From assembly GCA_964016885.1 (NCBI GenBank), contig OZ024742.1:97092001-97156000 (forward strand): DNA of 64,000 nt. Reading direction: 5' to 3'. The stretch's first letter is position 1. The number at the start of each line of letters is the position of its first letter. This stretch comes from Eledone cirrhosa (taxonomy: Eukaryota). This document shows, one piece after another, positions 22,088-61,175 of this stretch. A program made the translations under genes and the position numbers. The notes beneath the pieces are model-generated. The model was not told the DNA's origin. It did not search any database and saw nothing but the letters and a program-made list of their open reading frames with translations.

Positions 22088-22683
22088 TAAGTATATGCAG
22101 AGGTTATATTTAATTTGTTGGGATTCAACAATCTTAAACATTTTTATAACTGATATAAAGCACTCAACAGTTTAGTGGAGTAAATATTCAATATATTAAT
22201 AAATAGAAACTATATTTATAAAACCATAATTATTTTATTATATATATTTAAAGGGCAACCAAGGCAAATTAGGGTGGACTTTCATCAGATAAAATACAGA
22301 TTTGTTTTATAAATAAATATTGAAATACCCGGAAAAAAGAAAACCTTAACGGTTGAAGTTCTCTGGATAGTGGAGATAATATTTTATTGAGGGTGATATA
22401 AAGTTATGAGTGAGTATGCAAATGAGTGTCAGAAAAACTGAAAAAACAATGGTTTATTTAAATTAAACTGTTGGAAGAAAGGAGATGTAAAAGGGAGAGG
22501 GAAAAAATATTGAGAGAGAGAAAAAGATATTTTTTCTCTCTCCCTCTCAATATTTTTTTTCTCTGATGAAAGCGCACCATAATTTATCTGATGAAAGCGC
22601 ACCATAATTTGCCTTGGTTGCTCTTGAAATATATATAATAAAATAATTATGGTTTTATAATTCTAGTTTCGATTTATTAATAT

Positions 22684-22760
<77 letters not shown>

Positions 22761-23482
22761 TCTTACTGCTATAAGTGTTAACCTAATATATCCCTTCCAT
22801 ATGCTGTACCGATTGTGTTGTTATTTCTGTTTACCTTTTACATATATATATATACATATATATATATATTTTTTTTTTTCGCTCTACATGGCTGAATACA
22901 ATAAATGTAATCTGAGTTTTTCGAATATTAATAATAATATTTGATTTGTTTCCAATTATGCAAACAAGCCTGTTTACATGCCAACATAAGAGCAAGAATG
23001 AGGGGCTCATTCTACTGACATGGCTTTAAAAATGAGGCTTATTTACATATTTGCAAACGAATCGAATATAATAATATTCGATTTTAATGGGTAATATTCA
23101 TTTTTAACAGGTAAATCAGGTTCAATAGAATATTGACTATTAGAGTGGAGGTGGACAACAAGGTCGGAATAGGAGCTGAGAGAGAGGAGTAGTGGGATGG
23201 GGGAACAACATAGTAATATCAATTAATGAGGAATGAGGGGGAAGGAGAAAGACAGAGTTGATTGAAGAAAATACAGAGCAAATGGAAAGTTAATGAAATG
23301 GGAGTTGTCTTGGTATACAAATGTATACAAATGTACACAGATTTACCTATCCAATTATCAATTGGATTTTATGCGTAGATATATGTGCATATGGTACAAA
23401 ATGAAAGGATGTTATGGTGAGTGAGGCAAACATCACTTCACTATTGATACCAACAGTGTGTCCGCCACATGACCTCTTTTGA
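21385..23482. repeat. Inverted duplication, arms ~21385-21735 and ~23100-23482
   Basis: ~350-380 bp arms, highly similar with one indel block. Confidence 0.9.
22188..22688. mobile_element. Head-to-head inverted pair of a hammerhead-containing element
   Basis: Plus copy 22583-22642 TTTAT-CTGATGA-helix II-GAAA-TATATA-TA^ATAAA; minus copy ~22231-22296 has an 8-bp helix I but GAAA changed to TAAA. Confidence 0.75.
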
Positions 23483-23499
23483 AAACTCAGATTACATTT

Positions 23500-23850
23500 T
23501 CCTTGCTTGCAAGGGTGGGACGGGAACTGATTCTGGCTTGATTTCTACAGCTGGATGCCCTTCCTAACACCAACCTCCTTTACAGCGTGTGCTGGGCGCT
23601 TTTTTTTTCGTGGCGCCTACACGTCCACTTTACAGTGTGGGCTGGGTGCTTATTTGCCGTGGCTCCTCCACGACCACTTTGCAGTGGAATGATAGGGACC
23701 CCAGTCCTTATCATCTCATTTTTACAGCTGAGTAAACTGGAGCAATGTGAAATAAAGTGTCTTGCTCAAAGAAACAACACATCACCCGGTCTGAGAATTG
23801 AACCCACAACCTTTCGATTGCAAGGCCAATGCTCTAACCACTAAGCCATG
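23500..23850 (-). mobile_element. tRNA-derived SINE (family 1)
   Basis: A box TGGCTTAGTGG, B box GGTTCAATTC; co-linear with 9415-9735. Confidence 0.85.
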
Positions 23851-23924
23851 TATATATATATATACAGTATATACTTATGTATAGGAGGCACAAAAGTAGC
23901 TATAATGATTTATTTACAAAGACC

Positions 23925-24242
23925 CACAAATTTGAGGAGGGGAAAGTCGATTAAATTGACCCCAGTGCATTAGTGATACATCATTGTATCAACCCCATAA
24001 TGATGAAAAGCAAAACTAACCTTGGCAGAATTTGAACTCAATATAATGGTTTCTTATTTAATGACAAGATGTCCAATTTGAAGCTGATTAAATAGACCCC
24101 AATAAATTACTAGTACTTTATTTTATTGACCTCGTAAGGATGAAAGGCAAAGCTAACCTTGACGAGATTTGAACTCAGAATTCAAAGGGCAATAACTATA
24201 TGATGCAAAGCATTTTGTCTAATGTTCTACCGACTCTGCCAA
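23925..24242 (-). mobile_element. Two tandem SINE family 2 fragments
   Basis: Twice GATGAAA(A/G)GCAAA..AACCTTG..ATTTGAACTCA, the reverse complement of the family 2 body. Confidence 0.65.
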
Positions 24243-25544
24243 TGATGATGTTAATAAAAATCATAATTAAACATATATCAATAATATTAATAAAAACCTG
24301 TAAAAAATAACTTTGCAGTAAAAGTTAATGATTGTATTCCTACTTGTGCTCCTACCATATGTGTGTATGAGTGTTTATGTGCACGCGCATGTGTGTGTGT
24401 ATATACACACATACAGGGACACACAAAGGTGCTCAACTGATATTTTATTGATTGCTAAAACTTCACAAATCGTTGATCTTCAGAGATTACTAACAAAAAG
24501 CTTATGGAATAAGGATTTGTGAGGTTTCAGCTTCTAATACTATATGTATTTATTGTATGTATTGTATGTGTTGTATGTAAGTAGTATGTATGTATTGTTT
24601 TTATGTATATATGTATGTGTTGTGTATATTTGTCTATGTATATACTGTGAGAAATCAACCATTGCACCACATGGATGCCTGGTGAGTGCTCAAACCATTA
24701 AACCATGTAATCCCTGGCAGTCAGTTGATTGCTCATTTTAGAAGATTCTAAGCCTGTAGCGAGAAGTGTAAACACTTTGTTAGCATTGAATTGTAGTTGT
24801 CCCGATGTTAATGACTTTAAAAGCTAATCACTATAGATAATATTTTAAATAATCTGGTAAAGTACCCCAGAGGACGGAGTGTAATGGTTAATCTGCCCCC
24901 CTAGCATATGAGAGATGTGGGGTTCAATTCCTCAGAAGCAGCTCTGAATACCTTTTTCCTTCCACATGGGTACTTTACCTAATTTTCAACATCTTGTTTA
25001 AAGGAACCAATTTTATTATAGCCATGTATGTTGAGACAACTATATTTCCATTTTCTAATATTCCCAATGCTTCTGAAGTAAATCAGATATTTACACTTCT
25101 AGCTACCGGTTTAAAATGTTCTAAAAGAATCCATGGCCAAGGATTCTTTAGTATAATGGTTAACACACTCGCACAACATCCAAAGAATGCAAGGTTTGAT
25201 TCCTCACAGGTATCTCTGTCAAAATATTTATGTCTCTAGGGTTACTTTAACCAATTTTTTTTACTATTTGTATATTCATTTGCATTGAGACAACTACGTT
25301 TTACACTTACACACTCATACACACTCACACACACTCATATATATGTGTATGTATGCATGGAAAAATGGACGTTAAATGGTGATGATGATATATATATACA
25401 TATATATACAGAGAGAGAGAGAGATAAGCAAATAATTGATAGATAAAAAGAAAGAGATTCGAAATCTACTAGGGAAGAGGGTGAGCGAGAACAAATTGAT
25501 AAAAATTGGTGGAGAAAGTGAGAAGTAAGAGAATGAGATTGCAA

Positions 25545-25980: not shown

Positions 25981-27744
25981 TTATAGTGGAGGGGAGTGTT
26001 AAGGTTGGTGGGTTTGGAGTTGCCAGGGTTGGGGTTTCTAACCAAAATAAATTAACAGCAAAAACTCAAATCTAAAAGTTAAGAATTTATTCGTTTTATT
26101 ATTTTTTTAGTGTCTATTTTTCACTCTTTATTTTATTTCGACTTTTTTAAAAACTTTAGTCTACTTTAGTCAGTTTTAATCTGGTATATTCAGCTTCTAG
26201 CCTTTGAAATTATCGAATCAGAAAGATGGTGATAAAGTATGGCATAGAACAATGTTGTTCAATAAACGATTTTGTGAAATTCCCTTCCCATTTGCTGGAT
26301 TATTGTCCTCTCATGATGGTTTATCATGTTTAGTAAGTTGCCAAATGAGAAATAATAGTTTATGTTTGAACTCCCGTTTCCTATGAAAGGCTAGGATCAC
26401 AATGAGGATATCTTTCAGATAAGTGACATATTTATTTCCTCTTACATTCAACTTTCAATAACAGACTAATACCACTTAGAGAGGGATAACTTCATTTGTT
26501 GGTCGCTGAGGGTAAAAGTGAAGTCAGTGTTGTGTAAGGGGTGAGAGATTGAAGAGAAGGAGAGGGTTTTGAGATGGCGTTGAAGGAATAGCAAATGGAG
26601 GAAGAGGTGAAGGAAAAGTAGAAAGGGTTGGATTTATTGTTGAAAGATACCTTTGCTAGTAAGAGGTGGTGTTTCATATGTGAACAAAGAGATACTCGTA
26701 TTAGCTAACCATTGTCAGCAAGATAACATATGGTCTATACCATACTTGATAAGAGGTTGTTGTTGTTGTTGTTGAAGTAGTTATATTGCAACAAAATCTT
26801 CCATGCTCTTTCAGCTATGGAGACAATACAGCTCAGCAATGCTTACAGACAGAAACATTTGTCAATTATTTAGCCCCTCTGCCACCCACACCAATGTTTC
26901 TATTCCTTCAAAGGAATAGATAAGAGATGATATGGCAAAGACCTATGTTAGAGAGAATGAAGACTATGGCCCAAGTAGCCTGACATTTCAAACCCCATAA
27001 CTGCAATGTGAACTTTTTAAACACTCAGCCATGCATGTGTATATTATAAATATAATGTTTAGTCATATTGGTGTCATGTAAAAAATGTACTCAGAGCTTT
27101 TTGAATGAACACAAAATGAAGTAGAGAGACTTTAGTTTTGCCAGGAAAATAAAACTCACTCTGTAGCTGGTGCCATTATAAAATAGACCCAGTATATTCT
27201 GTCCAGTTAATGGTGATATGAAGGTCATCTAGCCACAGAAAACAAGCCAAAAATGTGATATAAAAATACAATATGTTCAAGAAGGACTGTGGCTACAAAT
27301 AAGTATGAACTCAGTTCATGAAGAATTATCCAACCCGTACCTGAAAGAAGAAGCTTAAATAATTGGTTACATATATGTATGTATGTATGTATGAAAAATT
27401 GTATTTATACATATGGTTATACATATATTGACATACACATAGTGATGATTACAAACACCCAGACATATTTCCCATTATCTCTCTTTCTCTAATATATGTC
27501 ATCATCATAATATTTGCTAAAACAACAATCATGATCATGAGATATATTAGAGAATGAAAGGTAATGTGAAATATATGTGGGGAGTTGTATGCATCTCTAT
27601 GTGTGCGAGAATGTATGTATAATAATAGGCATAATGCATATATGCATGTATGTATATATCATATGTGAATGTATGTATATATCATATATATACATATATA
27701 TACATATATCATATATATCATATATATACATATATATACATATA

Positions 27745-28902
27745 TACATGTGGCCGGTGCTCTGGTGCAATAAGTAGCAGCAAGTGCCCACAAAATACTA
27801 GCTCCTTCAACTGCGCAGAGGGTTCTATAGAAATAGTGGACAGCTTCCGTTATCTGGGTGACAAAATCAGCAGTGGGGGAGGGTGCTCTGAAAGTACAGT
27901 AGCTAGAGTCAGAACTGGATGGAAAAAGTTCAGAGAGCTTATACCACTATTAGCCGCTAGAGGGTTCTCCCTAAAAATGAAAGGCAGGTTATACGATGCC
28001 TGCATACGAACAGCAATGCTGCATGGCAGTGAGACCTGGGCATTGTGTGCAGAGGATATACGCAGACTAGAGAGGAACGAAGCTTGCATGCTCCACTGGA
28101 TGTGCAATAGTAATATACGTGAACGGCAAAGCATAAACGAACTAAGAAAAATATTAGAAATAAGAGGGATCAGATGTTGTTTACTCGAGAGAAGGCTACG
28201 TTGGTACGGTCACGTGATGCGCATGAAAGACGACAGCTGTATAACAAAGTGCAGGGCAATAAAGATAGACGGTAGCCACGGAGTAGGCAGACCCAGAAAA
28301 ACATGGGACGAGCTGATAAATTCCGACCTCACACGCTTACACCTCTCCAAGACAATGTCACTGGACCGAGACCTTTGGCGGTACTCAGTAATAGAGAAGA
28401 CCCGCCTTACCTAAATACAAAGTAAAAACCTACTACAGTCAGTAGGCACCTCTATCAAAACACACCCCCGTCCCACCACCTCCACACCGCCCCTTTCAAT
28501 GTAAAGTTATGTTGGTCCCACAACATCCAGGCCGAAACAAATGAGATTGTGTAGGTGTCACGACAAAAAACACACAGTCCACGCTGTAAATGTGGCCGTG
28601 TAGGCAACACGGTAAAAACCTCCCAGCCCCACACTGTAAATGTGGTTGGTGTTAGGAAGGGCATCCAGCTGTAGAAAACCCGCCAGACAGTCCACGCTGT
28701 AATGTGGCCGTGTAGGCAACACGGTAAAAACCTCCCAGCCCCACACTGTAAATGTGGTTGGTGTTAGGAAGGGCATCCAACTGTAGAAAACCCGCCAGAC
28801 AGTCCTATGCGAGCAAGACAACCACTCTTGCCTCAAGTGGGAAAACCCCCGTCCAAACCCATGCAAGCGTGGAACACGGACGCTAAACCTGATGATGATG
28901 AT
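27745..28902 (+). mobile_element. 3' fragment of RTE LINE (PHD-bearing family) with 3' UTR and (GAT)n tail
   Basis: TCGRC..VDSFRYLGD..MLHGSETW..RRLRWYGHVMR..GRPRKTW, stop at 28412-28414; UTR contains a ~120-bp tandem duplication. Confidence 0.92.
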
Positions 28903-28923
28903 ATATATATACATATATATATA

Positions 28924-28991
<68 letters not shown>

Positions 28992-30551: not shown

Positions 30552-30580
<29 letters not shown>
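30238..30580. repeat. Interrupted (TA)n tract abutting the Penelope-like element
   Basis: Directly visible. Confidence 0.95.
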
Positions 30581-30589
<9 letters not shown>

Positions 30590-31625
30590 AAGAATCAAAG
30601 AACTGTTCAAAACATTATTGTGCTTACAGCAGGTTTGGATTCTTCGGAGCAATTTATTAATGAATGGACAGTTATATGACCTCCTTTTCAGCCAAGAGAC
30701 ATACCGATACATATGCAAATATTGTGGGTCAACATTCATTACAGAATTTAGAGTGGCAGTACACACTTCGAGATTACATTCATATTAAAAGGTACAATCA
30801 AAAATACAGGTTAAAATACAACATGAAGATAAGCGGTTATATAGTGCAAATGTTATATGTGTGGCAAGCACGTGCGTCTTGTTTATATAGTGTGGCAGAG
30901 AGATACGTGTAGTAGAGGCACTTAGGTAGGTAAACAAGAGTGTTAGGTTGGTTGATCTGGTGGCAAATTCTTTATATGATTGATATAGTCTGTGTGTGGA
31001 GAAATGATATAAGCATTAAAAATAGTGCAAGCATTAAAAATATTAAAAGTATTGGAGATGCATAGCGAAGGGATGGCAAGTACTTCATGTACTTCGACAT
31101 TTTCATGGTCAGGGGAGTGTATTTTTCGATTATATGGCCCTCACATAATCCACGACAATTTGATATTGAGCGTTTGACAATCCAGTTAGAGAATCGTAGT
31201 CTGATGTTCTTTAGTTCAATACGTTTCGTTTCGAGAAACGACATTGAATACCACCCCGAAGTGTGTGTGTGGCTAAGGGGAGTTAATGCATGAGGGGAGG
31301 TAACTCCGGGGTTTCTATACCTAGCTATTGAAATTTGTCTCAATATAGACCCTAATTTCTATGGTTATGCGCAACTTCCAAAAAACTTCTAAAGCATAAA
31401 GTGTTTTAACTATAGAGTAGTTTAATTAAGTTGTGCTGAAGGTGTTCGTATTATTATGGGGAAATAACCCCTATCGTGGGGTGCCACAAATGAATATTAT
31501 AGACGATGAGCGAGGATGCTAAATTAATGATCTCTGTGGTTGTAGTCTACTCATAGGACCAGGCGCGGTGATTCGAGGACCAACTATGGACACGCAAGGA
31601 TACGCACAACAACTTCGACATAACC

Positions 31626-33122
31626 ATGGGATTTAGTGACTCGGCGCAGGTCACTGATTTGGTCGGCCTATACCTTCTCAATGAAATCCATAAGGACCTC
31701 CCTTACCTCAACGGTGGTTTGTACCGCGATGATGCACGTCTACTTATAGAATATAAAAAAATTAATATAGAAAGAACTAGAAAACAATTGCATAAGACAT
31801 TCAAAAACTTTAACCTTAGTATCACCATGGACAAAAACACTAAAAATGTTAACTTCCTAGACGCCACACTATACCTAGACTCAAAAATATATACACCTTT
31901 CCATAAGCCTAACGAAAAACTCATTTACGTAGATACCAAGTCTAATCACTCTAGATCAATATTAAACTCTATCTCTAAGGGGGTGTCCAATAGAATCACT
32001 AGTCTGTCCTATGATGCAAACATATTTAGCAAAAACTCACAATATTACAATCAAGCATTAGCTAGATCCGGCCATAATATAGAAATTGAGTTCCTACCTA
32101 AGAAAACACATAGCTACAACATCATCTCGCACAACATGTCCATGAGGAAACCTAATAATAGGAATAGCAACCACAAGTACACCAAAGCGGAGGGTGCCAC
32201 CGGAAGTAACCATTACCATGGAAACTACTGTGGTGCCTTAGGAAGAAACAACACACCTAACACTAAAAACAAAAATAGAAGAAGAAATAATACATTTTTC
32301 AACCCTCCTTTCAACCTAAATGTCTCCACCAACATACCCAGGGCTTTCTTCTCGCTACTAGATAAAAACTTCCCTCTAGGACACAAGTACCACAACCTTT
32401 TAAACAAAAAAACTATTAAAATCTCATACTCTACGACGCCTAACATAGCATACCACATAGCTAGCAGCAATAAAAGTAAAATTAATTCTTACTTCCAACA
32501 AACAAAATCACAACAGGATGCAAACCTTCTAAATACCTCTGTAGCAAGCAACCATAGTAATGGCAGTAACAATAGAAATAACACTAGTATAAGAAATAAC
32601 ACCGGGGTTGACAACCCGAATGTCCAAAATCCTATAGCTACCACCCAGACTTCTGCACTGCATTATAACCAGCAGACTAACACACAGGATAATTGTAACT
32701 GTAGAGCTAATAGAACCTGCCCTTTAGATAAAAAATGCCTAACCAAGGGTATCATATACTCATGCACCGTCACAACTAGCAACTCTTCAGAAACCTATGT
32801 AGGCTCCACTTCTAACTGCTTCAAAATCAGATATAATTCGCACATCCACTCGTTCAAAAAGCACAGCCTAGCCAACTCCACCTCACTTTCTAGCTACATA
32901 CACTATCTAACAACTAAAAATAAACCATACACACTCAAATGGGAAGTGATAGGCAGCGCGACCTCGTACAAACCACCTAATAAATTTTGTAACCTCTGTA
33001 TACTAGAGACCCACAATATTATCTTCTCCAACCGTAACCTACTTAACAAAAAATCTGAGGTATTTGCAACTTGCCAGCACCGCTTCAGACATTCCTTCCA
33101 AAACTTTAAGCCCAATATATAG
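31626..33122 (+). CDS. PLE polyprotein C-terminal part: RT palm/thumb, Cys linker, GIY-YIG endonuclease (N-terminus lost; the frame begins at ~31575)
   Basis: FDITMG..LVGLYLL..GLYRDD, VNFLD, FNPPF, IKISYS, CNCRANRTCPLDKKC, GIIY..YVGST..FKIRYNSH, CNLC..E..LLNKKSE..CQH; 498 uninterrupted codons. Confidence 0.92.
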   Translation: MGFSDSAQVTDLVGLYLLNEIHKDLPYLNGGLYRDDARLLIEYKKINIERTRKQLHKTFKNFNLSITMDKNTKNVNFLDATLYLDSKIYTPFHKPNEKLIYVDTKSNHSRSILNSISKGVSNRITSLSYDANIFSKNSQYYNQALARSGHNIEIEFLPKKTHSYNIISHNMSMRKPNNRNSNHKYTKAEGATGSNHYHGNYCGALGRNNTPNTKNKNRRRNNTFFNPPFNLNVSTNIPRAFFSLLDKNFPLGHKYHNLLNKKTIKISYSTTPNIAYHIASSNKSKINSYFQQTKSQQDANLLNTSVASNHSNGSNNRNNTSIRNNTGVDNPNVQNPIATTQTSALHYNQQTNTQDNCNCRANRTCPLDKKCLTKGIIYSCTVTTSNSSETYVGSTSNCFKIRYNSHIHSFKKHSLANSTSLSSYIHYLTTKNKPYTLKWEVIGSATSYKPPNKFCNLCILETHNIIFSNRNLLNKKSEVFATCQHRFRHSFQNFKPNI

Positions 33123-34563
33123 CAATATCGGACTTGAACCAAACACCACACCTAGCATCAAACACCAGGGCACACCTTATACAACATACCCAACACTAAC
33201 TGATCTAATATAACACAAACAACGACATCCCTCTGGAACCCTTCGCAGGGAGAATACCCATTTATACCTCTACGTCAGGTGCGACAACATCCACCCACTT
33301 GAACTGCACTACACCGCTCTATGGGTAATTTGAGCATGAATTGATTGGTTTGGTGGTGTTGTGCGGAGGAAGTGCCTTCCTTAGACAGATGAAAAACGAT
33401 TTAATCTCGTAACGCTGTTGAGCAGTAGGACCGGACGCTGAGCGCAGAGAATGAATGTATTGCAACTGGCGTGCGGGTTGTACATATATAGATGATTTGG
33501 CGGTCTGAGAGGGGTCGTGAGGACTGCGGATTGACCTCTGGCCGGACCTGGTGATGATTATCTTTCGACGTCCAATGTAGCAAGCGATGACCCAGAACTT
33601 ACCAGAGATCATTGTGTCTTGAAGTGATTCTGCAATCACCGCGCCTGGTCCTATGAGTAGACTACAACCACAGAGATCATTAATTTAGAATCCTCGCTCA
33701 TCGTCTATAATATTCATTTGTGGCACCCTACGATGGGGGTAATTTCACCATAATAATACGAACACCTTCAGCACAACTTAATTAAACTACTCTATAGTTA
33801 AAACACTTTATGCTTTAGACATTTTTTGGAAGTTGCGCATAACCATAGAAATTAGGGTCTATATTGAGACACATTTCAATAGCTAGGTATAGAAACCCCG
33901 GAGTTACCTCCCCTCATGCATTAACTCCCCTTAGCCACACACACACTTCCGGGTGGTATTCAATGTCGTTTCTCGAAACGTAACAGCCTCCTGTATTGAA
34001 CTAAAGAACATCAGACTACGATTCCCTAACTGGATTGTCAAACGCTGAATATCGAATTGTCGTGGATTATGTGAGGGGCATATAATCGAAAAATACACTC
34101 CCCTGACCATGAAAATGTCGAAGTACATGAAGTACTTGCCATCCCTTCGCTGTGCATCTCCAATACTTTTAATATTTTTAATGCTTGCACTATTTTTAAT
34201 GCTTATATCATTTCTCCACACACAGACTATATCAATCATATAAATAATTTGCAACCAGATCAACCAACCTAACACTCTTGTTTACCTACCTAAGTGCCTC
34301 TACTACACGTATCTCTCTGCCACACTATATAAACAAGAAGCACGTGCTTGCCACACATATAACATTTGCACTATATAACCGCTTATCTTCATGTTGTATT
34401 TTAACCTGTATTTTTGATTGTACCTTTTAATATGAATGTAATCTCGAAGTGTGTACTGCCACTCTAAATTCTGTAATGAATGTTGACCCACAATATTTTC
34501 ATATGTATCGGTATGTCTCTTGGCTGAAAAGGAGGTCATATAACTGTCCATTCATTAATAAAT

Positions 34564-34610
34564 TGCTCCGAAGAATCCAAACCTCGATTTGGAGGAAACA
34601 GCTGTAAGCA
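34564..34610 (+). ncRNA. PLE-associated type I hammerhead motif (C at position 4)
   Basis: TGCT-CCGAAGA-A-TCCAAA-CCTCGA-TTTGGA-G-GAAA-CAGCTG-TA^AGCA. The inverted copy at ~30622-30651 has lost GAAA by deletion. Confidence 0.75.
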
Positions 34611-34814
34611 CAATAATGTTTTGAACAGTTCTTTGATTCTTATATTTCATATAACTGCTCTGTAAATCATCTGATGTTTTTACATTGAGCTACTTAACTT
34701 ACTGGTAATAAGGTAGTAATACATTACTGCCTACCACTATTTAGGGTTTGTATAAAAAATACATATAACTGCATAAGGTTTTTGTATTTACATAAACATA
34801 AATAGTATAATTAA

Positions 34815-34905
<91 letters not shown>

Positions 34906-35685: not shown

Positions 35686-35982
35686 GAAAAAAAATATATA
35701 TATATATAAAATATATATATATATATTCATATATATATATAAATGAATATGTATATATAAGTATGTACACGTACATACATATATGTATACAGACGTACAG
35801 TAGTATGTATATATATATACATACATGCACACATATATATATGTACGTATGGAGTCACCGAACATTTATTATAATGCTCGATGTGTTTGTAAACAAACAT
35901 CCCGTATTAAGCCATAGTGTCTAGCAACCATCGTTGCTCATTTGCTCAACACTGACAAAGGAACGCTGTACTAGTTTCAAGC

Positions 35983-37882: not shown

Positions 37883-37950
<68 letters not shown>

Positions 37951-37953
<3 letters not shown>

Positions 37954-38460: not shown

Positions 38461-38484
38461 TATATATATATGTATATATATATA

Positions 38485-42016: not shown

Positions 42017-42070
<54 letters not shown>

Positions 42071-42190
42071 TATAGACATAGAATATTCGAAAATATTCTG
42101 TATGTTTATAATAAACATTTTGAAGACCTAATCGCTATAGAATAGAATACGTCACGTATTACAATTAGATTCTCGATAAAAGCAAGGGAA

Positions 42191-42233
42191 GTAATCTACG
42201 CGTTTCATTCTAGTTAGAAATCATCAGGACTAC
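42191..42233 (-). ncRNA. Type I hammerhead ribozyme, first of 9 minus-strand copies spaced 310 bp
   Basis: Reverse complement of GTAGTC-CTGATGA-TTTCTAACTAGAAT-GAAA-CGCG-TA^GATTAC. Confidence 0.88.
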
Positions 42234-45066
42234 ATATCCAGTGCTTTTATCGAGAATGACACAGCTAGAGACTTATAGAATACTTAGCTGTGTACAGGAA
42301 CTGGTTTGAAAGAGCGGTTGCCGGTCCGGCAGAAATTAGAAATTGGAATAAATGCTCTGAAATAGCGATATATATGTGAATATAGACATAGAATATTCGA
42401 AAATATTCTGTATGTTTATAATAAACATTTTGAAGACCTAATCGCTATAGAATAGAATACGTCACGTATTACAATTAGATTCTCGATAAAAGCAAGGGAA
42501 GTAATCTACGCGTTTCATTCTAGTTAGAAATCATCAGGACTACATATCCAGTGCTTTTATCGAGAATGACACAGCTAGAGACTTATAGAATACTTAGCTG
42601 TGTACAGGAACTGGTTTGAAAGAGCGGTTGCCGGTCCGGCAGAAATTAGAAATTGGAATAAATGCTCTGAAATAGCGATATATATGTGAATATAGACATA
42701 GAATATTCGAAAATATTCTGTATGTTTATAATAAACATTTTGAAGACCTAATCGCTATAGAATAGAATACGTCACGTATTACAATTAGATTCTCGATAAA
42801 AGCAAGGGAAGTAATCTACGCGTTTCATTCTAGTTAGAAATCATCAGGACTACATATCCAGTGCTTTTATCGAGAATGACACAGCTAGAGACTTATAGAA
42901 TACTTAGCTGTGTACAGGAACTGGTTTGAAAGAGCGGTTGCCGGTCCGGCAGAAATTAGAAATTGGAATAAATGCTCTGAAATAGCGATATATATGTGAA
43001 TATAGACATAGAATATTCGAAAATATTCTGTATGTTTATAATAAACATTTTGAAGACCTAATCGCTATAGAATAGAATACGTCACGTATTACAATTAGAT
43101 TCTCGATAAAAGCAAGGGAAGTAATCTACGCGTTTCATTCTAGTTAGAAATCATCAGGACTACATATCCAGTGCTTTTATCGAGAATGACACAGCTAGAG
43201 ACTTATAGAATACTTAGCTGTGTACAGGAACTGGTTTGAAAGAGCGGTTGCCGGTCCGGCAGAAATTAGAAATTGGAATAAATGCTCTGAAATAGCGATA
43301 TATATGTGAATATAGACATAGAATATTCGAAAATATTCTGTATGTTTATAATAAACATTTTGAAGACCTAATCGCTATAGAATAGAATACGTCACGTATT
43401 ACAATTAGATTCTCGATAAAAGCAAGGGAAGTAATCTACGCGTTTCATTCTAGTTAGAAATCATCAGGACTACATATCCAGTGCTTTTATCGAGAATGAC
43501 ACAGCTAGAGACTTATAGAATACTTAGCTGTGTACAGGAACTGGTTTGAAAGAGCGGTTGCCGGTCCGGCAGAAATTAGAAATTGGAATAAATGCTCTGA
43601 AATAGCGATATATATGTGAATATAGACATAGAATATTCGAAAATATTCTGTATGTTTATAATAAACATTTTGAAGACCTAATCGCTATAGAATAGAATAC
43701 GTCACGTATTACAATTAGATTCTCGATAAAAGCAAGGGAAGTAATCTACGCGTTTCATTCTAGTTAGAAATCATCAGGACTACATATCCAGTGCTTTTAT
43801 CGAGAATGACACAGCTAGAGACTTATAGAATACTTAGCTGTGTACAGGAACTGGTTTGAAAGAGCGGTTGCCGGTCCGGCAGAAATTAGAAATTGGAATA
43901 AATGCTCTGAAATAGCGATATATATGTGAATATAGACATAGAATATTCGAAAATATTCTGTATGTTTATAATAAACATTTTGAAGACCTAATCGCTATAG
44001 AATAGAATACGTCACGTATTACAATTAGATTCTCGATAAAAGCAAGGGAAGTAATCTACGCGTTTCATTCTAGTTAGAAATCATCAGGACTACATATCCA
44101 GTGCTTTTATCGAGAATGACACAGCTAGAGACTTATAGAATACTTAGCTGTGTACAGGAACTGGTTTGAAAGAGCGGTTGCCGGTCCGGCAGAAATTAGA
44201 AATTGGAATAAATGCTCTGAAATAGCGATATATATGTGAATATAGACATAGAATATTCGAAAATATTCTGTATGTTTATAATAAACATTTTGAAGACCTA
44301 ATCGCTATAGAATAGAATACGTCACGTATTACAATTAGATTCTCGATAAAAGCAAGGGAAGTAATCTACGCGTTTCATTCTAGTTAGAAATCATCAGGAC
44401 TACATATCCAGTGCTTTTATCGAGAATGACACAGCTAGAGACTTATAGAATACTTAGCTGTGTACAGGAACTGGTTTGAAAGAGCGGTTGCCGGTCCGGC
44501 AGAAATTAGAAATTGGAATAAATGCTCTGAAATAGCGATATATATGTGAATATAGACATAGAATATTCGAAAATATTCTGTATGTTTATAATAAACATTT
44601 TGAAGACCTAATCGCTATAGAATAGAATACGTCACGTATTACAATTAGATTCTCGATAAAAGCAAGGGAAGTAATCTACGCGTTTTATTCTAGTTAGAAA
44701 TCATCAGGACTACATATCCAGTGCTTTTATCGAGAATGACACAGCTAGAGACTTATATAGTCCTGATGATTTCTAACTAGAATGAAACGCGTAGATTACT
44801 TCCCTTGCTTTTATCGAGAATCTAATTGTAATACGTGACGTATTCTATTCTATAGCGATTAGGTCTTCAAAATGTTTATTATAAACATACAGAATATTTT
44901 CGAATATTCTATGTCTATATTCACATATATATCGCTATTTCAGAGCATTTATTCCAATTTCTAATTTCTGCCGGACCGGCAACCGCTCTTTCAAACCAGT
45001 TCCTGTACACAGCTAAGTATTCTATAAGTCTCTAGCTGTGTCATTCTCGATAAAAGCACTGGATAT

Positions 45067-45109
45067 GTAGTCCTGATGATTTCTAACTAGAATGAAACGC
45101 GTAGATTAC
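45067..45109 (+). ncRNA. Type I hammerhead ribozyme, one of 4 plus-strand copies (44758, 45067, 45377, 45687)
   Basis: Helix I GTAGTC/GATTAC, core CTGATGA and GAAA, helix II TTCT-AACT-AGAA, palindromic helix III ACGCGT; predicted cleavage after GUA at 45103. Confidence 0.88.
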
Positions 45110-45882
45110 TTCCCTTGCTTTTATCGAGAATCTAATTGTAATACGTGACGTATTCTATTCTATAGCGATTAGGTCTTCAAAATGTTTATTATAAACATAC
45201 AGAATATTTTCGAATATTCTATGTCTACATTCACATATATATCGCTATTTCAGAGCATTTATTCCAATTTCTAATTTCTGCCGGACCGGCAACCGCTCTT
45301 TCAAACCAGTTCCTGTACACAGCTAAGTATTCTATAAGTCTCTAGCTGTGTCATTCTCGATAAAAGCACTGGATATGTAGTCCTGATGATTTCTAACTAG
45401 AATGAAACGCGTAGATTACTTCCCTTGCTTTTATCGAGAATCTAATTGTAATACGTGACGTATTCTATTCTATAGCGATTAGGTCTTCAAAATGTTTATT
45501 ATAAACATACAGAATATTTTCGAATATTCTATGTCTATATTCACATATATATCGCTATTTCAGAGCATTTATTCCAATTTCTAATTTCTGCCGGACCGGC
45601 AACCGCTCTTTCAAACCAGTTCCTGTACACAGCTAAGTATTCTATAAGTCTCTAGCTGTGTCATTCTCGATAAAAGCACTGGATATGTAGTCCTGATGAT
45701 TTCTAACTAGAATGAAACGCGTAGATTACTTCCCTTGCTTTTATCGAGAATCTAATTGTAATACGTGACGTATTCTATTCTATAGCGATTAGGTCTTCAA
45801 AATGTTTATTATAAACATACAGAATATTTTCGAATATTCTATGTCTATATTCACATATATATCGCTATTTCAGAGCATTTAT

Positions 45883-45956
<74 letters not shown>

Positions 45957-47632: not shown

Positions 47633-49123
47633 TATATTACATTAAAGTTAATAAAAATAAACTAAATCTTACTTTCTATTAGAAGTTACATAAAAACCGT
47701 TTATTAACATATGTTTTGAACACCAGCTTAATACTTATAAAATCACTTATTTCACTAAATTTGTTCTTACTTTCTGGTGTGGCCAGCTGTTCTCCTAGGC
47801 AATACTTTTACCTTCTTTTCTGTGGGCACGGCTTAGACATACCACACCTAGACAGGTGTATGGCGTCTGCTCACACTTCCCTTCCTTTTTCACATTAATT
47901 AATTTTTTTCTCTTATGTGAAATATTTTTATGAATATAGTTTTCTGGTTTTAGATGGAAAGCCACAGATATTCACCATATTATGGCATCTCTTTCTCTCC
48001 ACACTTTTCAAAATTAATTGAATCACATAGGCAGAATATTCCGTTAGAAATATCACCAGAAAAAGGTAAAATAGGAAGTAGAAAGTAATAGCGAAGGTGA
48101 ATAAAGATTTGTATCAATAACATAGACAAATGTGGAGGGGTAAATTTCTATACTAGAAATGTTTCATTCAGTCGAAATACTCATCGTAAGGATTATAATT
48201 TGAAAAACACTATGTATATATAAATATAGTGAGAAGTGTTGAACGTTGAGAGGATAACAACTACCATATCATTAAGCTAAAAATAAATCTTATAGCTCTT
48301 CGATGTCAGAAGTACTCTAAGAGGAGAAAATTGTCAGAAGAAAGGTTTGCAGAAAAATAAAACTAAGAGAGTCTGTATTTTTGGCAAATATATTAATCAA
48401 TTTTATTGCATAAATAAATAAAAGAGAATTGAAAATTTAATATATATGCTGCTAGGTAATACAGTTAGGAACATTCTTTCAGTGTATTTTAAAAAGATTA
48501 TACTATTAATAATTTGTTTAACAAGTCAACATTGAGGCACTCATGATGTAGTTTATTAAAAATAAATACTAATAAAAGATTTTTTTTAAATTTATATATA
48601 ATTACATCCCAATCTCAACAGTAACATACAGTCTTCACACATTTTGTAATCATATTTCTAATGAAATATACTGCCTATAATTTTGAATTCATTATTATAA
48701 TAATCAAGAATTTGGAGAGATTAAGAAATATAACTAACTTTCTCAATATTTCGTTGGTGTTTGGATATAACAAATGTTGGACATTTTTTTAGATGAATAT
48801 AAGCATTTTAGAATAACCAGCTTTGTATAACAGAACCAGAAGCTGTTTTACAAGATTTAGTACCAAACGGGTAAATAACTAATTAAAACCTTGATACTCA
48901 TAACTGCATTAGATAGGAGATTTAAGGTAGACTTGTATGCATTAAGTGTTCACATTTTTTATATTTATTGAGCGAATGAAACTGATTTAATATATTCCCT
49001 AATATTGCTGACATTCATAGTTTTATTTCTCTGCCATCCTTCCATCTATCAATCTTTTCTACTTAAAGTACTTCTGACTTTCTAGCTCTATAATATCCTC
49101 TCTAGCGTCTATAATATACAAGT

Positions 49124-53948: not shown

Positions 53949-54021
<73 letters not shown>

Positions 54022-54255: not shown

Positions 54256-54323
<68 letters not shown>

Positions 54324-54996
54324 ATAATAATAAATGTGAAGACTAAAATCTAAAGAGGGCTCGATAAGGATAAATATATATCAAATATATAAGAACCATA
54401 GAGCAAACATAGAGGTGTGTATGTATATATTTAATCTAAACTATAATAATGAAAGGTCTGCGGGATTGCGTACGGTTTATCTTTTTTTATCCCGTTTGTA
54501 AAATAAGTTGGATTACTTTGAATAAATAATGAATGAATATTGCATAATTTATCTACTCAATTTCGTAAACAAAAATAATTTCGTAAAAATAAATAATTTC
54601 AAATTGACTTCTTTTCAAAGTTGCACTTCCGGAATATAGTCGCCACTACTTCAACTACCAAATATATAGAAAGAGAGAATTTGTGATGAGAGAGATAGAG
54701 AGATTATGATTTTCTACACCTGACGCGTATGATTCTGCACATACATACATCTATATGTATGAGTATATAATTATTATGAGTATATAACTATAATCGCGCA
54801 AACTCAAACTTATAAAAATACACTCTCACGGACATAATTCACACAAATACACATACTTTCACAAAATATACATACATTCATACATACCTTCACAGAAACA
54901 TGCATACATTCACACAAACATACATTCTTTCACACAAATATACATACATTCACACATATACTTTCACTCAAACATACATACATTCACACATATCAT

Positions 54997-55500
54997 ATAT
55001 TGAGTTATAAACTCAAAATAGTCTTTTACAATTAAATAGCTCAAAGAAGGGAATCTTTCCGAGCCGTGTAATAAAGTAATAAATCAATAAAAATAACAAA
55101 CCTATATTGGGCAATCGCCGTTTAATAATTTTTAGCGGCACGAGTATGCGAGGCGTTAGGCGCTGTGACATGTGCGTTCAACAACACATAGTTTTCAGTC
55201 TACTTAAATCTTTTGAAGTGAAAGGTACGAATTTCCTGGATACCCGCAGAAGAGCACAGGGATAGTGACTTTAACTTAATAATTGTTGCGAAACAGATTT
55301 AGATCTGTCCGGGTTTCAAACGGCGATTGCCCAATATAGGTTTGTTATTTTTATTGATTTATTACTTTAAATCGAGACAGGCAAACCATATTATTTTAAA
55401 TTAGTATTTTTCAACCTAGCTAACTTGGTCATTTACAATTCGAACACATGTATACTTGTATTGGTGTTCAACTCTCTCATATATTCAATTGTAGTACATT
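54997..55500. mobile_element. ~505-bp hammerhead family, diverged copy with 5' inversion
   Basis: HHR 55242-55314 (+): ACCCG-CAGAAGA-GC..GC-GAAA-CAGAT-TTAG-ATCTG-TC^CGGGT. 55072-55123 is the reverse complement of 55318-55369. Homologous to 60498-61008. Confidence 0.8.
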
Positions 55501-56234: not shown

Positions 56235-56640
56235 ATATCAATATACACACTACGCATGGTAGCAGAAAACCACCCGAAGGGTGGTTTTTCTGCTAGTTAT
56301 TATAATAACCTCTGTTATTTTCGTTCAACTAATTTATTTACATTATTCTTACTCCGAAACCGAGAATCATTCGGTTTCCTAAATAGAATGACTCCATTTA
56401 TACCATAAACGTGGTTTTGTCTTTGCGTGTAATTGTTCTCTCCACTCCTTATAACGACGTATTATCTTGGCTTTTTTCTGTTTTCACGAACCAAAGTATG
56501 ATCTTCCTGTTTTCCTCCGGTTGCAACGTTTTTCGAAATACTTACTTGTCAGTTCACAGATTGATTTTCTTCATTTCAGAAGATCCCGTTAAGGGTGAAA
56601 GCAGCGATTCTTTGCTAAATTTTAATCTATTATTTTAATA
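56235..56640 (+). mobile_element. CAGAAGA-hammerhead repeat family copy
   Basis: 5' hairpin shared with ~51410-51470; body shared with 37622-37882; HHR motif at ~56574-56620. Confidence 0.7.
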
Positions 56641-57034
56641 TATATACATATATACATATATATATTATATATATATATGTGTGTATGTATTTGCATATGT
56701 ATGATCGGCCTTTGTTGGTTACAATTGTGGGTGTTTCAGTTATTTGATAAACCATACAACAGCATGTTTGTGCAATTACCATGCAAATGGCTGGGTATTT
56801 AACAAACATAAGTATTATTAACATATTCATCAGGAAGATTCAGCAGGTTCATTTTTTTCCCAGATGAATGGACTGGAGCAATGTGAAATACTATGTCTTT
56901 CTCAAAAGCATAACAAGCAGACTGAAAACAAACTCAAGACCTTATAATTGCTAGATAAGCCTTGTGTTTCTAAAAACATAGATACATGCACACAGGCACA
57001 TGTATGTATCAAAATGTATGTTTAATACATGATT

Positions 57035-57830
57035 ATTTGGAACATAACTTACGAGAAATATAAATACTTTAAAAGAACAAATATGTATTATAGAACCAGG
57101 GGCGATTTCAGTCTGGATTTGGAACACAACTTAAAAAAGGTTCTTACATAAAATTATGGCAGCAGATTTTGAGATAAAATATAAACATTTTAAAACAAAC
57201 AATTTTGCATCATAGAACCAGGTGCGATTTCAGGCAGTTTGGTATCAAAAGTTTTAATATTGTGTTTGGCACATAAATTAACAAAGGTTCTTATAATAAA
57301 TGATAATGATAAACACTTTAAATGAAAAGGTTTTGTATTGGAGAACCTGTGTCAGTTTGAGACAGCTAGGTATAAAAAGTATTAAGCTGATGTTTGGAAC
57401 ATAATTTACCAATGGTTCTTACAAAATTATGGTGGACGATTTTTAGATAGATATAAACATTTCAAAACAAAGAGCTTTGTATGATAGAACCACATGCGAT
57501 TTCAGACAGTTTGCTATCAAAATGGTTAAACTGTTCTTTGGAATAGAATTTATTACATAAAATTATAGTGGAAGATTTTTAGATATATATAAATGCTTTA
57601 AAGCAAATAGGTTTTTATCATAGAATCATATGTTGTTTCAGGTGGTTAGTATCAAAAGGGTTAAGCTAATGTTTGGAACAAAATCTAACAAAAGTTCTGG
57701 AAGATTTTTAGATAAAATATGTTCGTTTGGAAACAAACAGTTTTGTATTGTAGTCTCAGGCACAATTTCAAGCAGTTTGTTATCAAAAGAGTTAAGCTGG
57801 TATATGGAGCATGGTAACAAAAGGGTTATC
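57035..57830. repeat. Old tandem repeat, about 6 units of ~120-145 bp
   Basis: TAGAACCA-like anchor near 57091, 57213, 57341, 57485, 57621 and 57751, each followed by TTTCAG..GTATCAAAA..TTTGGAAC. Confidence 0.8.
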
Positions 57831-58872: not shown

Positions 58873-58907
<35 letters not shown>

Positions 58908-59002
58908 TTTTGAGTATATGTTGGTTGTATACCAACACCTCAGTATGCCGGCTGGAGCACTCGACGAAGTGCGCAGGTTGGTTTGGTTACTCCGGGGTAA
59001 TG

Positions 59003-59440
59003 TAAAATAAAGTAAAATAAATAAGTAAAATGTTTAAAATTTAGCTTCGTTTATTACTGCTATATATATTTCGATGACAGCCATCTTTGGCTGTCACCTC
59101 TTCAGGCAGTCCGAATTAGTGTGGTATAGACAAGTACATATGTTGTTGAGGTGTATAATTTTGTCAATACTCTGATATACCCAGTTCCTGGTTGGATTGT
59201 TATTTCACTGAGGAACTGAAATCATATGATTCCAGTTCCTCAGTGAAATAACAATCCAACCAGGAACTGGGTATATCAGAGTATTGACAAAATTATACAC
59301 CTCAACAACATATGTACTTGTCTATACCACACTAATTCGGACTGCCTGAAGAGGTCACAGCCAAAGATGGCTGTCACCGAAATATATATAGCAGTAATAA
59401 ACGAAGCTAAAGTTTAAACATTTGACTTTTTATTTTACTT

Positions 59441-59447
<7 letters not shown>
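59003..59447. mobile_element. Spacerless palindrome (~222-bp arms) carrying two hammerhead motifs
   Basis: Centre ATCAT|ATGAT (59225/59226). HHR on plus 59341-59395: ACTGC-CTGAAGA-long helix II-GAAA-TATATA-TA^GCAGT. HHR on minus 59056-59110. Confidence 0.9.
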
Positions 59448-59533
<86 letters not shown>

Positions 59534-59537
59534 ATGC

Positions 59538-59940
59538 CATGTGCGCTATTATATATAGCACACTATTCAGTTTCTTAATATACTTAGAAGTGTCTAGGAT
59601 ACTAATTCCTCACCCACTGATGAGCTTGAATTCGTAATTCTATTCACAATTAACATTGCGAAACAACACCAAGTTGTCTGGGTGATTGGTAGTTATCACA
59701 ATTCCGGTTTGTATTTATTTTCTTGATTTTTTCTTAAATTGAGACAAGCAAACCCAATTGTCTCTAGATAGTATTCTTTTCACCTTAGCGAATCTGGTCC
59801 CTTACGATTTGAACACATATATGTATATATCTGTGTTCGTTTTTCTTTTATATTCTTTTATAATATAAGGCTCGGAATTATTTCTTTCTTTGAGCTATTT
59901 TGTTGTAAGAGACTATTTTGAGTTCCTAACTCAATATATA
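59538..59940 (+). mobile_element. ~505-bp hammerhead family, diverged copy
   Basis: HHR 59610-59685: TCACCCA-CTGATGA-GC..GC-GAAA-CAAC-ACCAA-GTTG-TC^TGGGTGA; flanks homologous to 60600-61008. Confidence 0.85.
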
Positions 59941-59961
59941 CCTTTGATATATATATTTATA

Positions 59962-61008
59962 TATATAATTGAATAAACTAAAGAGATGAACACTAATATA
60001 AACATACATGTGTTCGGATCGTAAGGACTAGGTTAGCTAGGGTGAAAAAATACTAACTACAGCAATGTGCTTTTTCAGAGTTAATTTTTAGTAGTAAATT
60101 AAGAAAAATAACAGACCTATATCAGGCAATAGCCTGGTAACAACTGGACAGTTTTGAAAACTGTTTCGCAACATCTTATTAAGTGAAGTCAACACGTTTC
60201 TCTGCTCCTCAGTAGTTGTTGAGAAATTAGCGATCCTTCCACTTCTAAAAATATTAGAAGACTGAATTGTGTGCGATATGAAATAGCGCACGTGTCTCCG
60301 AAACCTAGCATGTCTCGAAATCCCATGCCGCTAGAAATAACAGTCTGGTTAACAAGACATTGAAATTAGCTCTACATGATGGAGCCGACAAATATATAGT
60401 GAGTTAGAAACTCAGAGTAGTCTCTTACAATTAAATAGCTCTAAGAAAAAAGCTTTTCCGAGCCGTGTAATATAATTGAATAAATAAGAGAGATGAACAC
60501 TATATATTTGTCGGCTCCATCATCTAGAGTTAATTTTAATGTCTTGTTAACTGCTATTTTTAGCGGCATGGGATTTCGAGACAAGCCGGGTTCCGGAGAC
60601 ACGTGCGCTATTCCATAGCGCACACAATTCAGTCTGCTAATATTTTTAGAAGTGGAAGGATCACTAATTTCTCAACAACTACTGAGGAGCAGAGAAACGT
60701 GTTGACTTCACTTCATAAGATGTTGCGAAACAGTTTTCAAAACTGTCTAGTTGTTACCAGGCTATCGCCCGATATAGGTCTGTTATTTTTCTTAATTTAC
60801 TACTTAAAATTAAGTCTGACAAACCATATTGCTGTACTTACCATTTTTTCCCCCTAGCTAACCTAGTCCTTACGATCCGAACACATGTCAGTTTATATTA
60901 GTGTTCATCTCTCTTGTTTATTCAATTATATTACACGGCTCGAAAAAGCTTTTTTTCTTAGAGCTATTTAATTGTAAGAGACTACTCTGAGTTTCTATCT
61001 CACTATAT
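59962..61008. mobile_element. ~505-bp hammerhead family, head-to-head pair (minus ~59962-60502, plus ~60498-61008)
   Basis: HHR on plus 60674-60755: AACAACTA-CTGAGGA-GC..GC-GAAA-CAGTTTTCAAAACTG-TC^TAGTTGTT. HHR on minus 60139-60220. Confidence 0.9.
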
Positions 61009-61025
61009 ATATATTTATTTATTCA

Positions 61026-61175
61026 TTTATTTAAGATAACAGATTAAAGTTTAAGCAAAGAATAGCTGCTTTCACCCTTAACGGGATCTTCTGAAACTTC
61101 TGAGTTTCAGAAGATCCTGTTAAGGGTGAAAGCAGCGATTCTTTGCTTAAACTTTAATCTGTTGTTTTAATAAAT
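61026..61175. mobile_element. Foldback (arms ~73 bp, 4-bp spacer) of the CAGAAGA-hammerhead 3' end
   Basis: Plus 61103-61153: AGTTT-CAGAAGA-TCCT-GTTAA-GGGT-GAAA-GCA-GCGATTCTT-TGC-TT^AAACT; minus copy 61048-61098. Confidence 0.8.

Follow-up and report, generated by a model that had tools for sequence, protein, structure and literature searches.

The seven inverted insertions in the window (the whole 64,000-nt stretch of Eledone cirrhosa DNA analysed here) are head-to-head pairs of arms from Penelope-like elements (PLEs) or ribozyme repeats, and in pairs of this kind the two arms nearly always carry different 3' ends. In every family, the 3' ends fall at two fixed points, short (U) and tailed (T), roughly 26-167 nt apart, and one U arm and one T arm were found in 137 of the 144 fully classed pairs. 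Coordinated double target-primed reverse transcription probably explains the insertions; the case for it was built throughout on genomic scars, no intermediate having been seen.

Seven insertions and their families

The initial annotation had described seven inverted insertions of one polarity, the left arm antisense and the right arm sense. This held at all seven sites: the hammerhead lies on the + strand of the right arm, and the left arm carries the right arm's family in reverse complement. In the 30.6-34.8 kb element, hammerhead and ORF lie on one and the same strand. The chance of one polarity alone at 7/7 sites is p ~0.016 (arithmetic). The places given earlier were right, and several boundaries, which had been drawn too short with the tail missed, were corrected (Table 1). 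The left arms at 55.0 and 61.0 kb are without a whole hammerhead. At site 1, the left arm spans -316 to +97 of family C (counted from the short end), and the 74 nt separating the arms contain a hairpin as well as a second copy of part of the hammerhead core. A tail-to-tail neighbour of site 6 (with ~22 nt of TA between) had been overlooked, and at least four unpaired copies had gone uncounted.

Table 1. Arms and other features of the seven insertions (positions in the window; U, short end; T, tailed end; cores are those of candidate hammerheads)
Site	Corrected span	Feature	Position	Strand	Description
1	22092-22691	Left arm	22092..22505	-	PLE family C 3' end, antisense; 93-nt tail, T end outward
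1		Right arm	22580..22691	+	Family C, U end; core at 22588
2	30579-34821	Left arm	30579..31573	-	Inverted 3' UTR of PLE family A; U end outward
2		Right arm	31572..34821	+	5'-truncated PLE with Hydra-clade motifs; family A
2		ORF	31572-33122	+	End of RT, CxCx5C linker, GIY-YIG
2		Core	34568	+	U4C variant
2		Tail	~34654-34820	+	167 nt
3	~42060-45888	Left arm	42060..44757	-	310-nt hammerhead retrozyme, 8.7 units; U end outward
3		Right arm	44758..45888	+	310-nt retrozyme, 3.6 units; T end
3		Right-arm cores	44763, 45073, 45383, 45693	+	
4	54990-55498	Left arm	54990..55127	-	Tail of ~495-nt retrozyme family F and 55-nt jumped piece; no hammerhead
4		Right arm	55128..55498	+	Family F, U end; core at 55247
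5	58901-59449	Left arm	58901..59229	-	PLE family B 3' end with 97-nt tail
5		Right arm	59217..59449	+	Family B, U end; core at 59346; palindromic junction
6		Neighbour	59538..59940	+	Older E/F-type copy, ~70% alike; tail-to-tail with site 6 across TA
6	59963-61009	Left arm	59963..60507	-	~503-nt retrozyme family E, 1.1 units; U end outward
6		Right arm	60500..61009	+	Family E, one unit, 75-nt tail; core at 60682
7	61025-61252	Left arm	61025..61098	-	PLE family D 3' end, U end; in TA adjoining site 6
7		Right arm	61103..61252	+	Family D with 87-nt tail; core at 61108

On the + strand, all seven right arms (7/7) accommodate the topology of a type I hammerhead: stem I (4-8 bp), the core C-[U/C/A]-G-A-N-G-A, stem II, GAAA, stem III, then a UH site. 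The core was conserved at 94.6-100% in six families (33-56 copies in each); the U4 variants were C in family A, and A in 32/33 family F copies and 52/52 family D copies. The seven hammerheads gave no match in Rfam at the gathering score, and at E up to 10 the sole match was a weak HH9 at 37977-38052, outside all seven sites. Free folding recovered the hammerhead shape for the motif at 59.3 kb only (z -2.8) and was no better than shuffles for the other six. They are candidate hammerheads on the basis of motif, topology and family-wide conservation.

The description of these families as non-coding held for the 310-nt and ~500-nt tandem repeats (the latter families E and F), which are the only retrozymes. 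It was ruled out as a general statement because the families of sites 1, 5 and 7 have PLE ORFs in long copies: the families at 22.6, 59.2 and 61.1 kb are the 3' ends of three other PLE families (C, B and D, respectively). Upstream, on the strand of the hammerhead end, their long copies have an ORF for RT or GIY-YIG, so these three could be mobilised in cis. The family B long copy L183 has an RT ORF plus its own inverted arm, the family D long copies L185 and L186 have a GIY-YIG ORF ~1 kb upstream, and inverted arms occur likewise in the long copies L189, L191, L195, L196 and L200. RT and GIY-YIG motifs (names in part after PMC8557442) were recognised by alignment in the site 2 ORF and the longer copies L192 and L196; the site 2 ORF matched no family in Pfam.

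By their motifs, families A-D resemble EN+ PLEs of the Hydra clade. The CxCx5C linker, CxxC and CxH are present and CCHH absent in families A and D; RWK and EKT were found in family B and DKT in family C. Neither RWK nor DKT was seen in family A, where the N-terminus falls outside the open frame, and no single copy has every Hydra motif. The passages of PMC8557442 on the clade likewise give a C-terminal GIY-YIG without the CCHH cysteines, the same linker, CxxC, CxH, hammerheads, RWK and DKT (seen here in related families) and (TA)n insertion. The unit of the clade is usually <3 kb according to these passages, whereas family A has a pLTR-like tandem unit of 4171 nt (L192).

The pairs are extremely unlikely to stem from fold-back chimeras in long reads or from misassembly. 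The arms differ by 2-8% at five sites and also in length, end type and flanks; many family D antisense-to-sense joints, with 21-28 nt on the short side, were found in short-read contigs of one sample, and one strand-switch joint (65 reads, 2 starts) in raw reads of another. An artefact would accord with the ~99.8% identity of the 310-nt arms and with the result that, among the pieces listed, no read or contig clearly bridged the exact junctions. Three contig sets and one raw-read run were compared with 59960-61300, where thousands of family copies piled up and no listed piece clearly spans the locus junctions. The proposed check against independent reads turned up joints of this kind for family D, in short-read contigs, and did not confirm the seven locus junctions among the listed pieces.

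Polarity and end types among the copies

Orientations were counted in a fixed-interval sample (0.8 Mb from elsewhere in the genome, with the six known families covered), which we regard as the unbiased count because tallies of search hits favour young copies and the query span (the family E query included the tail). This count, set as a check of the polarity, bore it out, with 18 head-to-head versus 2 tail-to-tail pairs (p ~4e-4, arithmetic), or 18 versus 0 at junctions without a TA tract. With all sets together there were 152 head-to-head versus 8 tail-to-tail pairs; all eight of the latter span a (TA)n tract and are likely separate insertions into TA beside an older copy. In the 310-nt family, 18 of 21 loci were inverted, all head-to-head. 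Inverted pairs account for about half of all insertions.

Under independent choice of ends, about half of the pairs would be T+U. The 17 pairs of the 310-nt family were all T+U; the 127 classed pairs without this family comprised 120 T+U, 6 T+T (one of which had a U end on inspection) and 1 U+U. In families A-D, 89 of 91 classed pairs were T+U. Over all families, the pairs at odds with double priming were of the T+T type in five cases, in families E/F, and of the U+U type in one, in family D. The tail measures 167 nt in A, 97 nt in B, 93 nt in C and 87 nt in D (75-167 nt over six families, and ~26-35 nt in the 310-nt family). TA tracts lay within 25 nt of both ends in 95/120 pairs; TSD-like matches, mostly TA, were found in 17/120 pairs versus 4-15 in shuffles. 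Of 102 unpaired arms, 11 had at the 5' junction an inverted stub (9 nt or longer) of the opposite end type and none had one of the same type; in ~91 no second arm was seen.

Breakpoints and the origin of the pairs

The proposal in the initial annotation that both ends of the target prime cDNA was upheld as the best-supported mechanism (by the T/U pairing, the non-overlapping arms and the slipped repeats at both ends). The PLE enzyme would cut both target strands in a (TA)n tract, and two cDNAs would be begun in one coordinated step at two fixed points on the element RNA, a protein dimer likely giving each strand one start site. The 3'-OH of the top strand would prime the cDNA of the left (antisense) arm and that of the bottom strand the right arm; head-to-head polarity would be forced because each strand's 3'-OH primes its own arm. 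The cDNA 3' ends would then stop and be joined by microhomology of 1-6 nt or short templated fill, and a very short cDNA would leave a stub or no second arm. Tandem retrozymes would likely use a similar enzyme in trans, the copying probably running repeatedly round a circular monomer. In vitro, a purified PLE protein was shown to cut both strands and extend each of them, beginning at two neighbouring internal sites that mark the limits of the tail, and it is a predicted dimer (PMC11167929); that element was Poseidon, not Hydra.

Inner breakpoints varied, with recurrent hot spots. Terminal inverted repeats of a DNA transposon were rejected, the arms being unequal and the breakpoints variable. 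In the 89 A-D pairs, the U arm reached further 5' in 51, the T arm in 14, and the two were equal in 24. If priming occurred once, at T, and the first cDNA folded back with its copy stopping at U, then the common variants, the palindromic hot spots and the one-sided tails of the 14/89 pairs with a longer T arm would be accounted for. Such a copy must, however, sit within its template, and the U arm lies further 5' in 51/89 pairs; short tailed arms stand beside long untailed arms in L096, L108, L112, L195, L199 and L200. This course of events is therefore very unlikely: as a general rule, simple fold-back is refuted by the U arm lengths, and it may account for a minority of the palindromic junctions. 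The 19/89 pairs in which the T arm is tail only and has nothing in common with the U arm did not come from simple fold-back because their arms have no common sequence.

The breakpoints of the two arms were >15 nt apart in 65/89 pairs, by up to kilobases. Junctions were near-palindromic in 24/89 and clustered at hot spots (near -223 in B, -182 in C and -72 in D); palindromic hot-spot junctions would arise from fold-back too. Slipped repeats were found at U ends, whether the arm was long or short, and L195 and L199 have them at both outer ends; some of these calls are TA-tract variants. It is decidedly unlikely that an antisense transcript folds back and self-primes the sense cDNA, with the hairpin then integrated and one tail trimmed by the endonuclease. 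Self-priming has been published for head-to-head pairs with palindromic junctions (Arkhipova 2013; PMC3846280), with the tail attributed to EN-mediated resolution in the relevant passages of PMC8557442, and it agrees with the near-palindromic junctions and the common variants of the arms. It agrees poorly with the widely separated breakpoints, the tail-only arms, which had no partner sequence to copy, slippage at both outer ends of one insertion, and the use of both tail boundaries as RT start sites in vitro (PMC11167929).

Joining was followed in 36 clean junctions (14 with inserts); the overlap was at least 2 nt in 13/22 insert-free junctions versus 18% under the null (p 2e-5). The A-D references were single real copies, the source of exact-tracing failure at 42/61 traced A-D junctions, which were dropped as noisy.

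The arms were closer to each other than to the median other copy in 56/78 pairs, and locus-specific variants ran through both arms in 6/6 variant inverted 310-nt arrays. We read the slipped repeats and the source variants common to both arms as support for double priming. Conversion between arms after insertion could be a partial source of common variants. Two separately loaded complexes, carrying different RNAs of one active locus and with U/T set by cut geometry or an asymmetric complex, would fit polarity, breakpoints and slippage equally well; the common variants show only a common source, and T arms often pass U, which on one RNA would need strand displacement. We think this unlikely: 0/6 variant inverted 310-nt arrays were of mixed haplotype between arms, a template switch being seen in L205 only, and the 5' ends of T arms mildly pile up at the U site (10 lie no more than 12 nt from it, versus 3-5 per ~25-nt neighbouring bin). 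The pile-up fits collision on one RNA; TA microhomology could also cause it.

Relation to known PLEs, L1 and retrozymes

The second priming site of L1 is variable, and inversions are a minority of L1 insertions. In L1 twin priming, as described in the cited part of PMC10760644, second priming occurs at the target and the two cDNAs are joined by microhomology. The 19/89 tail-only pairs have the same non-overlapping geometry; unlike L1, the second start is fixed near the first, the arms mostly overlap as an inverted duplication, and there is no poly(A).

The polarity is nothing new and is ordinary for PLEs. The earlier remark that 5' inversion is typical of PLEs agrees with the passages on EN+ PLE insertion units in PMC3846280 and PMC8557442, where an inverted 5'-truncated copy lies at the 5' end, head-to-head most frequently, with one of the arms tailed, certain junctions palindromic and a type I hammerhead near the 3' end. 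The tails given there are 30-40 nt and optional, whereas here they are longer in six families and, with the few misfits above, on exactly one arm. Self-priming was favoured for the inverted structures in PMC3846280, and the cited passages of PMC8557442 call the origin of tandem and inverted structures undefined. Searching open-access text, we found no paper that counts the one-U-one-T pairing. The value of the present data lies in the counts: double priming is favoured by the strict combination of a U with a T end in seven families, by the arms that are tail only and by slipped repeats at the two outer ends.

Of the idea that one PLE machinery moves all the non-coding hammerhead families, part survives: three families have ORFs of their own, and the 310-nt, E and F repeats bear a scar of PLE type. 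From this common scar, we infer that PLEs may mobilise these retrozymes. Their arrays reach 14.5 units, with unit-to-unit joins in E and F, and unit variants are fixed along an array, which indirectly fits a circular template. Among 68 endonuclease hits, no PLE endonuclease ORF was linked upstream of the 310-nt, E or F repeats; in the DNA covered, a small part of the 3.0-Gb genome, neither these hits nor four PLE references included a PLE with a 3' end like that of the retrozymes. The animal non-LTR retrozymes in the cited passages of PMC7229834 are similarly non-coding tandem units (310 and ~500 nt here) with one type I hammerhead each. PLEs have been proposed as their mobiliser, and circular RNA as the template of the tandem cDNA, in the relevant passages of PMC7229834 and bioRxiv 10.64898/2026.07.22.740005. 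The case made there used co-occurrence and pLTR homology; here it is the integration scar, no pLTR homology having been found, and inverted arrays tailed on one side are absent from these passages. That non-coding hammerhead arrays bear the PLE-type scar adds independent evidence for the mobilisation of animal retrozymes by PLEs.

More tentatively, double priming may be the normal integration of PLEs rather than an accident, in which a dimer would cut both strands and start cDNA at each tail boundary on one template, and retrozyme circles may hijack the reaction and be copied round from the break in both directions. If this is true, the tail would be a two-primer loading site, and the one-tail scar would mark out, in genomes, whatever a PLE has moved.

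Polarity in the window and beyond

The genome is 3.0 Gb, and the window (G000:C3:97092001-97156000, on contig OZ024742.1) has 27-43% GC and is rich in (TA)n tracts. The initial annotation had claimed seven inverted insertions with the hammerhead sense strand on the right arm throughout; arm pairs are present at all seven places (sites 1 to 7), and every right arm accommodates a type I hammerhead on its + strand, which bears out the shared polarity. Stem I is 4-8 bp, and the core positions are 94.6-100% conserved in six families (33-56 copies each). At core position 4, nearly all copies of family A have C, and nearly all of families D and F have A; judged by sequence, these changes are family variants, not decay. 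None of the seven hammerheads matched Rfam, and unaided folding gave the hammerhead shape only for the 59.3 kb motif; by motif and topology, all seven are putative ribozymes. Since the ORF strand is the hammerhead strand in 4/4 ORF-bearing families, "sense" is fixed independently. The tails, the unpaired copies and one tail-to-tail neighbour had been overlooked.

Features of the window (positions within the window)
Feature	Position	Strand	Remark
Hammerhead core, site 1 right arm (family C)	22588	+	topology drawn
Hammerhead core, site 2 right arm (family A)	34568	+	topology drawn
Hammerhead core, site 3 right arm (310-nt family)	45383, plus three further + copies	+	topology drawn
Hammerhead core, site 4 right arm (family F)	55247	+	topology drawn
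Hammerhead core, site 5 right arm (family B)	59346	+	topology drawn
Hammerhead core, site 6 right arm (family E)	60682	+	topology drawn
Hammerhead core, site 7 right arm (family D)	61108	+	topology drawn
Tail-to-tail neighbour of site 6	59538-59940 facing 59963		~70% alike, ~22 nt of TA between
Tandem hammerhead repeat	37950-38469	+	unit ~316 nt, 77% like 310-nt family, changed core, unpaired
Unpaired family D copies	37623-37876, 54317-54410, 56332-56678		
~54-nt minisatellite, two old inverted pairs, old ~121-nt tandem	6750-7830, 24645-25209, 48287-49096, 57056-57811		
Presumed LINE-like RT/AP-endonuclease ORF fragments and Tc1/mariner-like transposase	10500-11991, 27635-28414, 35320-35865, 39378-41059, 17173-17757		by motif

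Pairs were counted in a fixed-interval sample (40 blocks, each 20 kb long and placed at fixed round coordinates) and in a further set (the best loci from six family searches); duplicates were dropped before counting. Head-to-head pairs, with 5'-to-5' junctions, were far from equalled by tail-to-tail pairs, both in the fixed-interval sample (18 vs 2) and with all sets pooled (152 vs 8). For the 310-nt family, 20 of the 21 other loci among the matches listed were fetched (43 matches lie beyond those); among the matches listed, 18 of 21 loci including the window are inverted, all 18 head-to-head. A TA tract lies at the junction of all eight tail-to-tail pairs and is absent from 150 of the 152 head-to-head pairs; at L183, a locus elsewhere in the genome, the tail-to-tail partner belongs to a full head-to-head pair that lies within TA next to an older copy. 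Elements were also seen nested in TA tracts flanking earlier insertions, giving clusters of PLE ends (L096, L108, L117, L183 and window 61010-61025).

As for assembly artefacts, arm divergence is 2-8% at five window sites, and the window-site arms have unequal ends and different flanks. Many family D antisense-to-sense joints were found in short-read contigs of one sample and one strand-switch joint in raw reads of another; among the contigs and raw reads listed, no piece clearly bridged the exact window junctions. The head-to-head observation is real and genome-wide, and the layout is already known for PLEs: passages of PMC3846280 give head-to-head as commonest, with a tail on one of the inverted pLTRs, and a passage of PMC8557442 gives a one-sided tail with an inverted 5'-truncated copy as typical.

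Families and neighbouring elements

The element at site 2 is a PLE truncated at its 5' end; its ORF matched nothing in Pfam, and by motif comparison it and its relatives carry the Hydra-clade motifs listed in part of PMC8557442. An asparagine-rich stretch lies between RT and endonuclease (window 32500-32700), and the N-rich inserts described in a passage of PMC3846280 resemble it. Sites 1, 5 and 7 are 3' ends of PLEs from three other families, in whose long copies (L183, L182; L188, L189, L191; L185, L186) RT or GIY-YIG frames lie on the same strand and end 1.0-1.5 kb upstream. Non-coding retrozymes in tandem array make up sites 3, 4 and 6 (units 310, ~495 and ~503 nt), and families E and F are 75% alike. 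E, F and the 310-nt repeat gave zero matches to the four PLE references and were linked to none of 68 endonuclease hits. The claim that one PLE machinery mobilises all the non-coding hammerhead families fails for sites 1, 5 and 7, which are ends of PLEs with their own ORFs; for the other three it is unproven and likely in kind. PLEs are proposed as retrozyme mobilisers in passages of PMC7229834 and bioRxiv 10.64898/2026.07.22.740005. A neighbouring retroelement at L200 (3949-6966) has a different GIY-YIG ORF with CxxC within the core and is probably of another PLE clade.

Site 1 is enclosed by an inverted duplication of single-copy DNA (window 21392-21739 and 23099-23473; 375-nt arms, 87% alike, no further genome matches), in which no hammerhead was seen; a 125-nt palindrome of ATG/CAT repeats (~21270-21395) lies just to its left. 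The two old inverted pairs (arms 70-72% alike) contain no recognised hammerhead, and the tandem hammerhead repeat includes a weak Rfam HH9 match at 37977-38052.

End types and priming

Arms end either short (U) or with a tail (T) of 167 (A), 97 (B), 93 (C), 87 (D), 75 (E), 84 (F) or ~26-35 nt (310-nt family). All seven window sites have one U and one T end. Among head-to-head pairs with both ends classed (n = 127, excluding 20 in which one end was truncated and 5 cut by a fetch edge), 120 were T+U, six T+T and one U+U; on inspection, one of the six proved to have a U end, leaving five T+T (E/F) and one U+U. The 310-nt family was T+U in 17/17 complete arrays, and the T arm was left-hand in 51/120 T+U pairs. 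Of the 102 arms without a partner, 11 bear at their 5' junction an inverted stub (at least 9 nt) of the other end type, and none bears one of the same type. The family D copy at 54317-54410 is a tail alone, beginning at the U site. Counts of U/T pairing were not found in the open-access main texts searched.

A passage of PMC3846280 proposes an antisense template with self-priming. Fold-back is ruled out as the general rule, because a copy made by fold-back cannot extend beyond its template, and in families A-D the U arm extends further 5' in 51/89 pairs, while the T arm is the tail only in 19/89. Slipped repeats of the last bases mark priming in TPRT; they were found at U ends, whether the arm was long or short, and L195 and L199 have them at both ends. 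They were called at nine loci, three of which resemble TA variants. With the pairing of one U and one T end and the tail-only T arms, they support well the earlier proposal of priming from both target ends. Parts of PMC11167929 describe both strands being cut and extended, give two adjacent start sites as bounding the tail, and predict a dimer; L1 twin priming is treated in parts of PMC10760644 and bioRxiv 10.1101/2024.12.14.628481.

After 42 of 61 A-D junctions were dropped as too noisy, overlap of at least 2 nt occurred in 13/22 clean junctions without inserts (null 18%), and 14/36 clean junctions had inserts, several copied from nearby. Arms were mutually closer than the median other copy in 56/78 pairs, and closer than any other copy in 22/78, most clearly in rare subfamilies. 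Among the variant inverted loci of the 310-nt family, 6/6 carry their locus-specific variants throughout both arms, and single-unit changes are not common to both; this pattern fits, without proving, a circular monomer template. One array unit has a base change at window 45228 that is fixed in both arms of L208; such a variant unit could have been the circular template of that insertion, recurrent change being the alternative. At L205 (G000:C3:282882200-282888400), L220-like variants of a different haplotype occupy the innermost stretch of each arm, which suggests a template switch near the junction.

T-arm ends pile up mildly at U (10, against 3-5 in neighbouring bins), which leans towards one RNA over two. 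Against double priming stand the six end-pairing exceptions (five T+T, one U+U), the ~91/102 unpaired arms that carry no stub, and a set of 24 near-palindromic hot-spot junctions of a kind that fold-back would give too. We nevertheless regard double priming in its coordinated form as the probable cause of the head-to-head pairs, and double priming as a whole, with the two-RNA variant included, as a highly probable one.
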